This document shows positions 14,192 through 48,712 of a DNA stretch of 64,000 nucleotides, in pieces. The stretch is taken from the sequence record ON210137.1. The stretch is one strand, 5' to 3'. Made by a program: the position numbers and the translations under genes. Each line of letters opens with the position of its first letter. Positions within the stretch are counted from its first letter, which is position 1. The notes under the pieces are model-generated. The model did no database searches and was not told where the DNA came from. It worked only from the letters and a program-made list of their open reading frames with translations. This DNA comes from Escherichia phage EC150.

Positions 14192-14533
14192 TTAATTTCT
14201 TTTGAGAGGAATATGGCGGTTGCTGTCATTATTTGGTTTAATAATGAGCATAAAAACGATTAGAAAGATGATGGCTGATATACTTAATTCAATCAGCGCG
14301 GCTTGAGATATAGATTGATCTTCATGATACTGCTTTTGCATTTCTGCTTTCTTCTGAGCGCAAACTTCAGGTGATATGTAATCGCCTTTTGAGTTGCCAT
14401 AATAAATCTCGCCATTCTCAGAAATAAGCCTGCCGCAAATATCCGTGTCAGCCTTTGCGCTTGACATCATAATAACGGTGCCGATGATAGCGGCAATTGT
14501 CCAGATTAGCAGTTGTGATAAGGTATTATTCAT
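14192..14533 (-). CDS. membrane protein (113 aa)
   Basis: Hydrophobic segments at N-terminus and near C-terminus. Confidence 0.5.
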   Translation of the reverse strand: MNNTLSQLLIWTIAAIIGTVIMMSSAKADTDICGRLISENGEIYYGNSKGDYISPEVCAQKKAEMQKQYHEDQSISQAALIELSISAIIFLIVFMLIIKPNNDSNRHIPLKRN

Positions 14534-14962: not shown

Positions 14963-15173
14963 TTTCTTTCCACTCCACGAATGTACTGCCACTTGTTTCT
15001 CTATTTAGCAGGTATCTGCCGCGCATTCCATGAAGGCTGAACTCAACCGTCGATGGATTAGATTTTGAAAGCCACATCACTTGACCGTCGAATGGTCCGC
15101 CGATGCATGTGTATTTGGCCTTTGGCTCACTCCTTTTGGGTCGCTTTGCCCGCTCTTTGATTGATAGTCTCAT
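14952..15173 (-). CDS. hypothetical basic protein (73 aa)
   Basis: ORF abutting the stop of 15173-15388. Confidence 0.4.
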   Translation of the reverse strand: MRLSIKERAKRPKRSEPKAKYTCIGGPFDGQVMWLSKSNPSTVEFSLHGMRGRYLLNRETSGSTFVEWKENGK

Positions 15174-15388
15174 CAGTCTTCACCTTGAGATTCAAGACAA
15201 GTAAGGACAAGCCACGTCATCGGAAGAATCAAAACCAGAGAAATAAGTGACCAAATGGACCAACACAAGATGACAGACTTGAATGTGTGAACGTCGCCAA
15301 ACGTAGCAGTGAAACAAAATCCCATTACGAAAGCAATCGCTGTGGAGTGATTATCAATGGCTTTGATGGCGCGGTCGATGAGTTTCAT
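15173..15388 (-). CDS. small membrane protein with two predicted transmembrane segments (holin-like)
   Basis: 71 aa; hydrophobic stretches TAIAFVMGFCFTATFG and VILCWSIWSLISLVLILPMTWLVLTCL; holin role is inference. Confidence 0.4.
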   Translation of the reverse strand: MKLIDRAIKAIDNHSTAIAFVMGFCFTATFGDVHTFKSVILCWSIWSLISLVLILPMTWLVLTCLESQGED

Positions 15389-43479: not shown

Positions 43480-44124
43480 ATGATTAATGCAAACGTAATA
43501 TCTAAAGGGACCGGATGCAGCATGGATGTTGCAGAGAAATGGGTGGACCCTTTCAAGCAGGCTTGTGAGCACTACGGAATCAAAAGCAAGAATGCCATCG
43601 CGGCATTCCTTGCAAACGTAGGAGTAGAGACGGGCAGCTTGAAGACCTTTGTGGAAAATCTCAACTACTCTGCTCAAGGTCTTGCCAATACATGGCCTAG
43701 TCGTTACAGCGTCAGCGGTCGCTCTGGAAGTGCCCCGAACTCATTGGCCCTGTCGATTGCCCGTAAACCTGTGGAAATCGCCAATAATACATATGCAAAC
43801 CGCATGGGCAACGGTTCAGTAGCATCTGGCGACGGTTGGAAGTACCGTGGCCGTGGTGCCATTCAGCTGACTGGAAAGGCCAACTATGCGGAATATACGC
43901 GTCAATCAGGCTATGATGCATTGAACAATCCTGATATTCTGACTGAACCAAAATACATTGCTGACAGCGCGGCATGGTTCTTTAAGAATAGCGGCTGTAT
44001 TCCTCTTGCGGATGCAGGAAATTTTGATTCAACCGTTAAGCGGATTAACGGGGCCGCGCCGAACGCAGCAAACCACGGTGAGTTGCGAAGAAAGCGTTAC
44101 AAAGATGCACTAGCAGTTATGTAA
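43480..44124 (+). CDS. endolysin, glycoside hydrolase family 19-like
   Basis: AIAAFLANVGVETG and GDGWKYRGRGAIQLTGKANY motifs typical of GH19 lysins; no signal peptide. Confidence 0.8.
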   Translation: MINANVISKGTGCSMDVAEKWVDPFKQACEHYGIKSKNAIAAFLANVGVETGSLKTFVENLNYSAQGLANTWPSRYSVSGRSGSAPNSLALSIARKPVEIANNTYANRMGNGSVASGDGWKYRGRGAIQLTGKANYAEYTRQSGYDALNNPDILTEPKYIADSAAWFFKNSGCIPLADAGNFDSTVKRINGAAPNAANHGELRRKRYKDALAVM

Positions 44125-44150
44125 GAAAAAGGCCCATATGGGCCTTTGTT
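44125..44150. terminator. bidirectional rho-independent terminator
   Basis: Palindrome GGCCCATATGGGCC flanked by an A-run upstream and T-run downstream, between convergent endolysin and minus-strand genes. Confidence 0.6.
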
Positions 44151-44380
44151 TATTTTACGGCTTCAACTTGGACGGGCGGAGCGGAACTTGTATCAATGTC
44201 TGGTAAGTCGAAATAATACCCCGCCATACCAATTGCACCCACAATCGCGGCCCGTGCCACCTTGCTGCTAATTGACTCCCCAATAAGCTTTACCAACAGG
44301 GATAAGATTTGAGACATCAAAGCCTTTTTCAGCCTTTTGTTTTCTTCCAAATCTTTCTGCATAACTACCACCCATGTCAA
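44150..44380 (-). CDS. hypothetical protein (76 aa)
   Basis: Last gene of the minus-strand block; contains hydrophobic AAIVGAIGMAGYYF segment. Confidence 0.35.
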   Translation of the reverse strand: MTWVVVMQKDLEENKRLKKALMSQILSLLVKLIGESISSKVARAAIVGAIGMAGYYFDLPDIDTSSAPPVQVEAVK

Positions 44381-45094: not shown

Positions 45095-46072
45095 TTAAAA
45101 ATACTCCATATCGGTAATATCACGGAAGCATTTATACAAGGCAGAGCGCGGCACGTCAACGATGCCAAAGTTGAAGAATTTATATGTCAGATACTTGTTG
45201 CGATAATTCTCGCGATTCTCCCAAAGCATTTTTCTCTCTGCCATAGGCATTGAACCAGCGGATACGCGGAAAGGAATCATTTCACCTTTCTCATCAACAT
45301 ATTTTGGATTGACAACCACAAATGATCCAAGGTATCCTTTTGCAACTAAGCCTTCAGCCTCTTTCGAACGCTTAGTGCGACCCAACTCATCAATGAATGC
45401 TTCGTTGTTATTCTCCATCATCTCAACGAAGTCTATGATCAGACCTTCTTCATCGGTCCACGGCTTGTCCTTCCACACATCACGTGACTTTGGCGTCGCG
45501 CGGCCATGCTTGTATTTGCCCGTCCAAGACTTGCCATACAAGCCTTCATAGCCAAGCTGGTCTGCTTCGATTTGCATCGCCGCGTACTGTTCCATATTTT
45601 CGATGTTTCGATATTCGAGAGCGCGAAGGAATGGGCGTCGACCATGGTTGAGGAGGTGCTGATTGACTTCAGCAACTCTAGCGCGATAGTTTGCATAACG
45701 CTTTTCAAAAGGCAAATCAGGGTCGCTGAAGTCATCAAACACCCACCATGTAAAGTTAGTGATTGCATCAGTGTTCATGCATGCAGTATAGGCCTGTTGC
45801 ATGACGTTCTTGTCGTTCGGATTACCGTCAATTAGCTCTCCATCAAGTCCGTGAATCAATTCACCCAAGAATAGGAACTCTTTTTTGATTTGAATATTGC
45901 GCAGCGCCATGCCGGACGTGCCCATTGGCAAGTTGTCATACGCCATCGCGCGTATGCCATCGACCTTGAAGGATAATCCGCAAGGCAGCGGCACATCTTC
46001 GCCGCGCTCGATGATTTGTTTACGCTGACAGCCTTTCATTGGTTTTAATGCTTTGATTTCTCCTGCCATCAC
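45095..46072 (-). CDS. ATP-dependent DNA ligase (nucleotidyltransferase superfamily)
   Basis: 325 aa; adenylation motif I KxDGxR present as SFKVDGIRA. Confidence 0.65.
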   Translation of the reverse strand: MMAGEIKALKPMKGCQRKQIIERGEDVPLPCGLSFKVDGIRAMAYDNLPMGTSGMALRNIQIKKEFLFLGELIHGLDGELIDGNPNDKNVMQQAYTACMNTDAITNFTWWVFDDFSDPDLPFEKRYANYRARVAEVNQHLLNHGRRPFLRALEYRNIENMEQYAAMQIEADQLGYEGLYGKSWTGKYKHGRATPKSRDVWKDKPWTDEEGLIIDFVEMMENNNEAFIDELGRTKRSKEAEGLVAKGYLGSFVVVNPKYVDEKGEMIPFRVSAGSMPMAERKMLWENRENYRNKYLTYKFFNFGIVDVPRSALYKCFRDITDMEYF

Positions 46073-46662
46073 TCAAACTCCTTATTCATCACTTGTTCCA
46101 GCGCATAGGCATAAGCCTGATCAGTCGATTTGATAAACGTTCCGTTGTACATCACACCTTTACGGTCCTTGATGTCTTCATAGGCGGCTTGAGCGCAATC
46201 AGACAGTCGAAGTCCATAATCATGTGCTACGCCGGAAAGATAATCGACTGCGCCCATGATGGTGACATCAATATCCATACTTTGATTTTTAGCAATGGCG
46301 TCACCAAGCCGTCCAAGAGTCTTTGCCAAGCGAAGGATAAACGAGTGAGGGTGAGCGCCTTTGTCAGCGCAACCGCCGCCGTTGATGTCTTCGATTTTTG
46401 CACCGTTTTGCGCGGCAAGAATAGTTAACACAACAAGGCAATCGCCGATGTCATCCTTGATTGCGGATTGTAAATCACAGATGGCCTGCTCTGTATATCC
46501 GATTTCAGGGTCAAAGAACACAAGGTCATGTAATTGATCAACGTGGTCGGTCAACTCCCCAAACTCGCTAATAAGCTTCGGGTATTGGTCCTTAAGGTCG
46601 CAGCCTTGGATGATGTTACGTTCAGAAGCCCACTGGCGAATGTTTGCATAAATCTGGTTCAT
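46069..46662 (-). CDS. mazG: MazG-like nucleoside triphosphate pyrophosphohydrolase
   Basis: KLISEFGELTDHV and DIGDCLVVL motifs of the all-alpha NTP-PPase fold. Confidence 0.7.
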   Translation of the reverse strand: MNQIYANIRQWASERNIIQGCDLKDQYPKLISEFGELTDHVDQLHDLVFFDPEIGYTEQAICDLQSAIKDDIGDCLVVLTILAAQNGAKIEDINGGGCADKGAHPHSFILRLAKTLGRLGDAIAKNQSMDIDVTIMGAVDYLSGVAHDYGLRLSDCAQAAYEDIKDRKGVMYNGTFIKSTDQAYAYALEQVMNKEFE

Positions 46663-47177
46663 TTATTTTCCTTTGATGCGTTGAATTGATCGATTTTAAT
46701 TTTAGCCTGATTATAAGTATCAATCAAGCTATTAACCTTCTCTTTTAATCGGTTTGTTTCTGCGGCGAACTGAACAAGAAATCTGACATCGTCTTCTGAT
46801 AGTCCACAGTTTCCTTCTGGGATAGAGAGGCGTCCAGTGGTCGCAGAGTCGGGCACACTCCTGAGTAACTCACGGGAGCAGCTGAGTTGCTCGCGCAGCT
46901 TGATATTCCCAGACTTGTAACGAGCAATAGTGTCATCAGCAACCAGTTGCGCTTCCTGGCGACCCTTCTCATATGCCGATGCCGATTCAACCTGTAAAGA
47001 TGCAATTTGCTCTTCGAGTGCATTTATCTTGTCCTTACGCTCATTAAGCGATGTCAGATATTGATTATCCTTTGCCAGTGATGCGTTGGTTTGCTGCAGG
47101 TCTTCAACGTATGATCCAGCGGCAAACGCGCCAACAAGGGCAAGAATCTTCAGGAGCGGTACAATTCTTTCTATCAT
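46659..47177 (-). CDS. Rz-like inner-membrane spanin (i-spanin) candidate
   Basis: 172 aa; N-terminal transmembrane segment IVPLLKILALVGAFAAGSYV then coiled-coil-like domain with Cys residues; o-spanin-like ORF embedded in +1 frame. Confidence 0.45.
   Translation of the reverse strand: MIERIVPLLKILALVGAFAAGSYVEDLQQTNASLAKDNQYLTSLNERKDKINALEEQIASLQVESASAYEKGRQEAQLVADDTIARYKSGNIKLREQLSCSRELLRSVPDSATTGRLSIPEGNCGLSEDDVRFLVQFAAETNRLKEKVNSLIDTYNQAKIKIDQFNASKENK
46745..46972 (-). CDS. embedded Rz1-like outer-membrane lipoprotein spanin (o-spanin) candidate
   Basis: Alternative frame inside 46659-47177; MRRVARKRNWLLMTLLLVTSLGISSC gives basic n-region, hydrophobic core and lipobox-like ISSC; short Pro/Cys-containing mature part. 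Confidence 0.35.
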   Translation of the reverse strand: MRRVARKRNWLLMTLLLVTSLGISSCASNSAAPVSYSGVCPTLRPLDASLSQKETVDYQKTMSDFLFSSPQKQTD

Positions 47178-47234
47178 GATGCACCAGATAAATAAAAGGC
47201 CGCCAATCGGCAGCCTTGTTGATTTGATTGTCGA

Positions 47235-48095
47235 TTAAAACTCTTCTGCGTCGGTCGGAGTTTCATTGACAGGACCAGCGGCACCGCTTGCTTCTTCCTG
47301 CTTGCTGCGGTCAATGTTAACGTTGCCGCCAACTACGTCGTTGTGGAATGCTTTGGCGACTTCGTACAAACCTTTGTCCTGCACCAGACCTTCCAGCTCA
47401 AACTTCAGAACTGACCATGTGTTGCCGTCTTTGGACTGGGATGCAGTACCCATGCGAACGATGTTCATAAAGGTCGGCGGCGTTTTCAGACCCTGCGGAG
47501 TCTGAACTTTCTTCTGCTGCAGAGCGGTCATCAGCATGCGAGACGGCTTGATCATGGAAGAAGTCAGAGACAGCATTGCGCTACCAAATTCACCAGTTTC
47601 TTCGTTCAACAGAATCACAAAGTGGTTGCGTGTATCTGCGTAGTAAGGCGATTTCTTCTCGTGCACCTTGCCGTTTTCGTCCGGCACGAATACCTTACCG
47701 TTGATCTCAACAGCGCGGCCTGCCGCGACTTCTGCATCAACGTGCTCTTTGGTGAATTCACCTTTAAAGCCTTTATCGTCGGACTCGCGACCGCCCCAAA
47801 GGATGAAGGTGCGTTTGAATGCGCAAGGGATGATCTGCACGCCTTTCTTACCGTCATACAACTCACCAGTAACGGTGTTGTAAAGCATTCCGGCTTTTGC
47901 GCCAGGAACGTGTTTTGGATCATCTTCGTCGACCATAGGAGACATCTTCTGCAGGACGACGATAAAAGGAATGGCATACGCATCGGCATCGGCACCTTCA
48001 AAACCAGCGCCAAAATCGGTCATGTCGACAAAATCAGCCATAGCGGACATCTGGGTGTTTTTCACTGCAACTTCGGTAGTTTCTTTCTTAGACAT
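47235..48095 (-). CDS. hypothetical protein with acidic C-terminal tail, possible ssDNA-binding protein
   Basis: 286-aa ORF is solid; C-terminus ...TDAEEF is an acidic tail ending in Phe as in some phage SSBs; function is inference. Confidence 0.35.
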   Translation of the reverse strand: MSKKETTEVAVKNTQMSAMADFVDMTDFGAGFEGADADAYAIPFIVVLQKMSPMVDEDDPKHVPGAKAGMLYNTVTGELYDGKKGVQIIPCAFKRTFILWGGRESDDKGFKGEFTKEHVDAEVAAGRAVEINGKVFVPDENGKVHEKKSPYYADTRNHFVILLNEETGEFGSAMLSLTSSMIKPSRMLMTALQQKKVQTPQGLKTPPTFMNIVRMGTASQSKDGNTWSVLKFELEGLVQDKGLYEVAKAFHNDVVGGNVNIDRSKQEEASGAAGPVNETPTDAEEF

Positions 48096-48154: not shown

Positions 48155-48712
48155 TTACTTTTTGCTTTTAGGCAAGGTTATTTTAGCTTCTTTGTATTCA
48201 AAAACGCTAATATCTTCACTAACTGGATTGCCTGCTTCCAGCTGTTCTTTTACAAATGACTTCAGTGTAGCAGAATGAACGCCTTGTTTCAAGGTGGCTT
48301 CAACACCATCTTCACGCAGCGCGGCAACAATCTCTTGCGCCTGTTCGATTTCTTCGCGACCAAACTCAGCCGTGACGCTGGACTTGATCAGGCCGCCGTA
48401 ACCGTTGTTTACAAGCCAATCGAAAACTTTTAATTCGTTTTCTTTCTTGATTGAAGCGTTCACCTTGGACTCGACCTTGATTTTGGTCTTGTCCTCAAGC
48501 TTGATTTCGGACACGCCAAGCTCATCCATAACGCCAGGAAGCAAAACAGTTTTGATTTCACTGATACGCTGCTTTTGCATATCAGCTTCATCTTCAAGCT
48601 CTGTCAAAGCTTCTTGGCGTTCTGCCAGTTCAGATACTAAGCGCGCAAGGCGCTCTTGAATGCTCTCAGGAGCAACCTGCGGCAAATCATCTTCCCAATT
48701 AATATTGCTCAT
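48155..48712 (-). CDS. hypothetical acidic protein (185 aa)
   Basis: ORF in replication block; coiled-coil-like N-terminus. Confidence 0.5.
   Translation of the reverse strand: MSNINWEDDLPQVAPESIQERLARLVSELAERQEALTELEDEADMQKQRISEIKTVLLPGVMDELGVSEIKLEDKTKIKVESKVNASIKKENELKVFDWLVNNGYGGLIKSSVTAEFGREEIEQAQEIVAALREDGVEATLKQGVHSATLKSFVKEQLEAGNPVSEDISVFEYKEAKITLPKSKK

Follow-up and report, generated by a model that had tools for sequence, protein, structure and literature searches.

Embedded spanins of lambda, PY54 and Mica and the locus in the window

The Rz/Rz1 pair of phage lambda is the prototype of the embedded two-component spanins. The i-spanin Rz has an N-terminal transmembrane domain (TMD) and a helical periplasmic part, the o-spanin Rz1 is a lipoprotein whose gene is fully embedded in the +1 frame of the i-spanin gene, and both proteins possess periplasmic cysteines. 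Embedded spanins are also encoded by phages PY54 (ORF63) and Mica (gp32/gp31), where the pair directly follows the holin and endolysin genes and is the last element of a classical holin-endolysin-spanin cassette. The T4 spanin genes pseT.3 and pseT.2, which are remote from the holin gene t and the endolysin gene e (PMC6139136), are separated rather than embedded.

We analyzed a candidate locus of the embedded type in the window, that is, the whole 64,000-nucleotide stretch of Escherichia phage EC150 (ON210137.1). It shares with lambda all the features listed above, and its embedded gene occupies codons 69-145 of 172, compared with codons 74-135 of 153 in lambda. The resemblance of the i-spanin to Rz is barely detectable, however, and, unlike in lambda, the pair is adjacent to neither a holin nor an endolysin gene. 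PY54 and Mica contain detectable homologues of both proteins in their lysis cassettes, whereas the pair in the window is located in a replication block. This remote location is shared with T4, but the sequence families of the T4 spanins are unrelated to the pair studied here.

The window represents a Wifcevirus myophage, and 28 records of this genus, including WFH, WFC, ECML-117, Mansfield, FEC19 and Bas98-101, match the region of the locus at 94-97% identity over 4 kb, with 97% identity for WFH, Mansfield and ECML-117. In the GenBank entry of Mansfield, the genes CPT_Mansfield_057/058 at equivalent coordinates are annotated as i-spanin and o-spanin (171/172 and 90/92 identical residues, respectively), and the Bas98-101 entries are annotated likewise. 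Mansfield, ECML-117 and Bas98-101 have the same genes, the same flanking genes and the same upstream terminator as the window, with few point substitutions. Moreover, ECML-117 is listed among the singleton families of embedded i-spanin/o-spanin pairs (Kongari et al. 2018, PMC6139136). Given the annotation in near-identical phages and the catalogued ECML-117 pair, the spanin pair of the window is already known and consists of ordinary phage lysis genes. Our literature search found no published experiments on Wifcevirus spanins.

The i-spanin gene and its product

Both spanin ORFs are on the minus strand, which the preliminary description of the locus had not stated. The outer gene and its predicted membrane anchor are as follows:

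46659..47177, minus strand: i-spanin gene (172-aa ATG ORF; match to PHROG 1327; i-spanin in Mansfield and Bas101; helices in the AlphaFold2 model)
47112..47165, minus strand: predicted transmembrane anchor, i-spanin codons 5-22 (coordinates converted by hand from codon numbers)

The sole strongly hydrophobic stretch of the i-spanin comprises residues ~5-22 (IVPLLKILALVGAFAAGS), with a Kyte-Doolittle maximum of 2.33 in the best 15-residue window (IVPLLKILALVGAFA); by this hydrophobicity measure, the protein has a single N-terminal TMD. A single-sequence AlphaFold2 model of moderate confidence (mean pLDDT 71.5, below 50 in the transmembrane segment) consists of helices 5-88, 94-114 and 128-170, with a non-helical linker at 115-127. 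In a crude test with a simple score, the heptad a/d score of the periplasmic part exceeded those of 497 of 500 shuffled sequences. The model and the heptad score agree with the helical, coiled-coil-like periplasmic domain with a central linker that characterizes i-spanins. Thus the preliminary description of a 172-aa product with an N-terminal transmembrane segment and a coiled-coil-like domain, for which a coiled-coil prediction had been proposed as a check, is borne out. The periplasmic part contains two cysteines, C100, which is invariant in four homologues, and C124.

In the subgroup of WFC, Eco4M-7, SP13 and F13, one nucleotide is inserted shortly before the i-spanin gene ends (~46669 in the window), which alters the last few residues of the protein and limits the tblastn match in these phages to residues 1-170.

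The embedded o-spanin frame

The second gene is read in the +1 frame and extends beyond the i-spanin gene at neither end:

46745..47023, minus strand: o-spanin ORF (o-spanin in Mansfield; kept in LIET2, PY54 and Mica)
46895..46906, minus strand: lipobox ISSC, its Cys being the predicted lipidation and cleavage site (pattern match)
47032..47036, minus strand: Shine-Dalgarno-like AAGGA, 8 nt upstream of the ATG at 47023 (sequence; a ribosome-binding site is annotated there in Mansfield)

The ORF ends at 46745 and has two possible ATG codons, at 47023 (92 aa) and at 46972 (75 aa); from either one, the mature predicted lipoprotein has 50 aa. The predicted signal peptide consists of a basic n-region, a hydrophobic core and the lipobox ISSC (MRRVARKRNWLLMTLLLVTSLGISS, with cleavage immediately before the lipobox C), as had been read in the preliminary description from the ORF at 46745-46972; all these elements are seen in the translation. 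The lipobox Cys is invariant in seven Wifcevirus sequences and three distant homologues. The string LLVTSLGISSC fits a PROSITE PS51257-type pattern. When translation is started at 46972, the lipobox Cys is residue 26, within the range of 15-35 set by the position rule, and the sequence also agrees with the K/R rule, whereas a start at 47023 places it at residue 43, outside this rule. A scan of the six reading frames of the 64-kb window found the lipoprotein pattern in three ORFs only, the o-spanin among them; one of the other two is a false positive caused by an FAD motif.

The '+2 rule' describes Lol sorting in E. coli, and the o-spanin has Ala rather than Asp at position +2 after the lipobox Cys, as expected for an outer-membrane lipoprotein. 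The mature part contains four Pro and two Cys among its 50 residues. The predicted short Pro- and Cys-containing mature domain is therefore present, but it is only modestly Pro-rich; it is longer and less Pro-rich than mature lambda Rz1 and lacks the penta-proline stretch of the latter. The second Cys (C57 of the 92-aa form, mature Cys15) is invariant within the genus. Both spanins thus have the periplasmic Cys expected for homotypic intermolecular disulfides (PMC6139136).

The choice of the o-spanin start codon, 46972 or 47023, is ambiguous. The GenBank records of Wifcevirus begin the gene at the upstream ATG (47023), whereas the preliminary description began it at 46972. The form starting at 47023 is preceded by a Shine-Dalgarno sequence, but has a 27-aa highly basic n-region and its lipobox Cys at position 43. 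The form starting at 46972 has a canonical 25-aa lipoprotein signal, as in the PY54, LIET2 and Mica homologues, but inspection of the sequence upstream of this ATG revealed no comparable Shine-Dalgarno sequence.

Distant homologues and dual coding

The i-spanin matches the PHROG 1327 profile 'Rz-like spanin' (E 2.7e-26, residues 6-160 on profile positions 9-156 of 158), and the product of the embedded ORF weakly matches PHROGs 4306, 1275 and 11621, each labelled 'Rz-like spanin'. Scans of both window proteins against Pfam and NCBIfam found no spanin family; in particular, the i-spanin had no match to PF03245 (Rz) at E<=1 and did not reach the gathering threshold. However, PF03245 is matched by three of the four aligned i-spanins (LIET2, PY54 and Mica; best E 6.1e-17), which makes the link of the window i-spanin to this family transitive only. 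Both proteins are tied to Rz through PHROGs and homologues only.

In tblastn searches, the i-spanin detected homologues in Yersinia phages P840 (E 2e-13) and PY54 (4e-13), Pantoea phage LIET2 (1e-11) and Burkholderia phage Mica (2e-6). At the equivalent position, all four contain an ORF in the +1 frame whose product has a short signal peptide and a lipobox of the form ISGC or MSGC. The i-spanins of the window, PY54 and Mica have in common the motifs ...GN(I/V)(K/R)L... and C(G)LS(D/E)(A/D)DV.FLV, and their o-spanins share ISGC..CP..P.D..L...ET.D(Y/F)Q..MS.FLF. In the alignment with LIET2, PY54 and Mica, identity to the window proteins is 27-30% for the i-spanins and 42-48% for the o-spanins; the lipobox Cys, a P-x-D/L motif and the C-terminal M-x-x-F-L-F are invariant in the latter. 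A profile of the four o-spanins aligns with lambda Rz1 over 54 columns (hhalign probability 92.3%, E 5.6e-7), a match that is supportive but not strong because the signal peptide makes up much of the alignment. The corresponding i-spanin profile matches lambda Rz weakly (hhalign probability 25.6%).

The greater conservation of the o-spanin relative to its host frame across distant relatives provides strong sequence evidence that dual coding at the spanin locus is conserved. One may suppose instead that only the i-spanin-like gene is functional and that the +1 ORF inside it, a by-product of the amino acid sequence of the outer gene, is not translated. Three observations are in line with such a by-product. 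When the i-spanin was re-coded with synonymous codons, 16% of trials gave an alternative-frame ORF of 75 aa or more and 2.3% gave a lipoprotein-like one, so that the i-spanin sequence accounts for part of the o-spanin signal; as the i-spanin protein fixes two-thirds of the o-frame bases, this recoding null cannot serve as an estimate of chance. Within the genus, the o-frame shows 11 non-synonymous versus 4 synonymous changes among seven Wifcevirus sequences, too few for recent constraint on this frame to be demonstrable. Finally, the ATG at 46972 has no obvious Shine-Dalgarno sequence. On the other hand, the +1 ORF, the signal peptide and the lipobox Cys have been retained in four lineages whose i-spanins are just 27-30% identical, the o-spanins being the better conserved partners; AAGGA precedes the ATG at 47023 by 8 nt, the o-spanin profile matches lambda Rz1, and i-spanins are not known to function in the absence of an outer-membrane partner. 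Taken with this evidence, the by-product explanation is extremely improbable.

The substitution counts for the remainder of the locus come from the same seven sequences. Outside the overlap, the variable sites of the i-spanin gene are synonymous in 12 cases and non-synonymous in 2. Within the overlap, 16 sites vary; neither Cys of the o-spanin is affected, and the lipobox has one conservative change, from I to M. A scan of IMG/VR yielded four near-identical Wifcevirus loci only, which are too similar to be used in selection tests.

We conclude that the locus very probably encodes a two-component spanin of the lambda Rz/Rz1 embedded architecture. This agrees with the reading given in the preliminary description, and it is supported by the sequence anatomy of the pair, by Rz-like homology (PHROG 1327 among others), by the deep conservation of dual coding, with a +1-frame ORF in distant relatives, and by the annotation of near-identical phages.

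Genomic neighborhood

The genes and signals surrounding the pair are the following:

46069..46662, minus strand: MazG-like pyrophosphatase gene (PHROG 1992, E 6e-62)
47196..47217, minus strand: intrinsic-terminator-like hairpin just upstream of the i-spanin start (9 bp, 6 GC, T-run; annotated terminator in Mansfield and WFH)
47235..48095, minus strand: gene of a Pam3_gp34-like protein, the upstream neighbor of the i-spanin gene (PF23977, phrog_2402; Pfam)
43480..44124, plus strand: GH19 endolysin gene, the last gene of the tail(-fibre) module (PHROG 181, E 3.9e-70; PF00182; endolysin in Mansfield and Bas101)

The spanins belong to a minus-strand block that also encodes DNA ligase, MazG, two helicases and the alpha and epsilon subunits of Pol III. 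The endolysin gene is convergent with this block and 2.5 kb away from the 3' end of the spanin genes. The preliminary description had placed the pair in the replication module, about 3 kb from the endolysin, and considered the lysis genes dispersed, all of which holds with the separation now measured. Of the two flanking genes that it named, MazG was correct, whereas the other neighbor is the Pam3_gp34-like gene and not a demonstrated replication protein. The Pam3_gp34-like protein has an acidic C-terminal tail ending in ...TDAEEF. Among its homologues, that of Pseudomonas phage Cisa bears the label 'putative holin' and that of phage Nello the label 'putative structural protein'; the two conflict, and neither is supported. 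A sequence search of PDB with this protein gave no match.

The i-spanin stop codon overlaps the start codon of the MazG-like gene as ATGA, an overlap that makes translational coupling of the latter to the i-spanin likely. No sigma-70-like promoter was found between the strong hairpin at 47196-47217 and the i-spanin ATG, and transcription of the spanin-MazG-ligase genes may require read-through or a promoter specific to the phage. A second hairpin (44128-44147, plus strand) lies between the convergent endolysin and minus-strand genes. Next to the endolysin gene, positions 44150-44362 (minus strand) encode a 70-aa protein (phrog_5165), kept in Wifcevirus, Kylevirus, Myosmarvirus and Pbunavirus, in which an amphipathic helix is followed by a weakly hydrophobic one.

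Such surroundings bear on whether the pair acts in lysis at all. An envelope-spanning complex with a non-lysis role, for instance in superinfection exclusion or as an anchor of a replication or injection complex, would explain the site in the replication block. The position between MazG and the Pam3_gp34-like gene with probable translational coupling to MazG, the distance of 2.5 kb to an endolysin on the opposite strand and the presence of a different membrane protein at this site in sister genera (see below) would all fit such a role. However, the PY54 and Mica homologues reside in holin-endolysin-spanin cassettes and thereby tie the family to lysis; no other spanin candidates are annotated in Mansfield (~49 kb inspected) or Bas101; and the T4 spanins are likewise remote from t and e (PMC6139136). 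A non-lysis role is therefore very improbable. The lysis genes of Wifcevirus, as those of T4, are dispersed.

The corresponding position in sister genera and the holin

The neighborhood of the locus is syntenic in Pbunavirus (Cisa), Kylevirus (Kyle), Myosmarvirus (MyoSmar) and Salmonella phage PCSE1, with the gene order endolysin, small conserved protein, ligase, MazG, X, Pam3_gp34-like gene, helicase. In the sister genera, X encodes a protein of 201 aa that combines a glycine zipper near the N-terminus with two hydrophobic segments near the C-terminus (phrog_1544, unknown function). This Gly-zipper protein with two TMDs is not a spanin and is unrelated to the pair of the window. No homologue of it was found in the window, and Wifcevirus appears to have replaced it by the Rz/Rz1-type cassette. 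A broader proposal, which we regard as rather unlikely, is that the position between MazG and the Pam3_gp34-like gene constitutes a conserved 'envelope/lysis slot' of the PB1-like supergroup, where Wifcevirus swapped the phrog_1544 protein for a horizontally acquired Rz/Rz1-type cassette. If the phrog_1544 protein functions in lysis, this exchange would uncover a new class of lysis genes and an unusual lysis locus within a replication block. In phages such as MTx, the phrog_1544 protein could serve as a holin or disrupt the outer membrane. The genome announcement of MTx reported no holin or spanin, and none is annotated in the inspected stretch of MyoSmar.

We searched the Pbunavirus locus for a u-spanin with an AWAC lipobox and found none there. 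A 'U-spanin' label has been given to ORF85 (621 nt) of Pbunavirus JJ01 (PMC9583000), which corresponds by position and length only to the following gene of the window:

48155-48712, minus strand: gene of a phrog_2378 protein (positional counterpart of JJ01 ORF85)

The phrog_2378 proteins of Cisa and of the window have no signal peptide, lipobox or TMD; consequently, the label of JJ01 ORF85 looks like a mis-annotation.

The annotations of Bas101 and of the Mansfield stretches inspected (~49 kb) include no holin. The window contains two small membrane ORFs as holin candidates, neither of which matches a PHROGs or Pfam family:

15173..15388, minus strand: 71 aa, two hydrophobic segments and a charged C-terminus
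14192..14533, minus strand: 113 aa, signal peptide and C-terminal TMD

Proposed mechanism

By analogy with Rz/Rz1, from which we infer the localization, complex formation, membrane fusion and expression timing of these proteins, the i-spanin would sit in the inner membrane through its N-terminal TMD and extend a largely alpha-helical, coiled-coil-like domain into the periplasm. The +1-frame prolipoprotein would be lipidated at the lipobox Cys and then cleaved by signal peptidase II. Having Ala and not Asp at position +2, the o-spanin would be sorted to the outer membrane, the Lol system delivering it to the inner leaflet. The C-termini of the two proteins would then join to form a complex that spans the periplasm, passing between the strands of the peptidoglycan mesh, and is probably stabilized by homotypic disulfides (i-spanin Cys100 and Cys124, mature o-spanin Cys15). 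Spanins are inactive while the peptidoglycan is intact. Once the GH19 endolysin, released by the holin, has removed the peptidoglycan, the spanin complexes would fuse the inner and outer membranes and complete lysis. As for T4 pseT.3/pseT.2, spanin genes should be tolerable within a replication block because their products are inert until the peptidoglycan is gone.

Implications for Wifcevirus

A very short latent period has been reported for the genus (bioRxiv 10.1101/2024.09.12.612763), to which the identity of the holin is relevant. As to the spanins, the phage carries a standard outer-membrane disruption system. The significance of the pair lies mainly in correct annotation, as several GenBank records of the genus name the spanin genes 'hypothetical protein' or omit the o-spanin.
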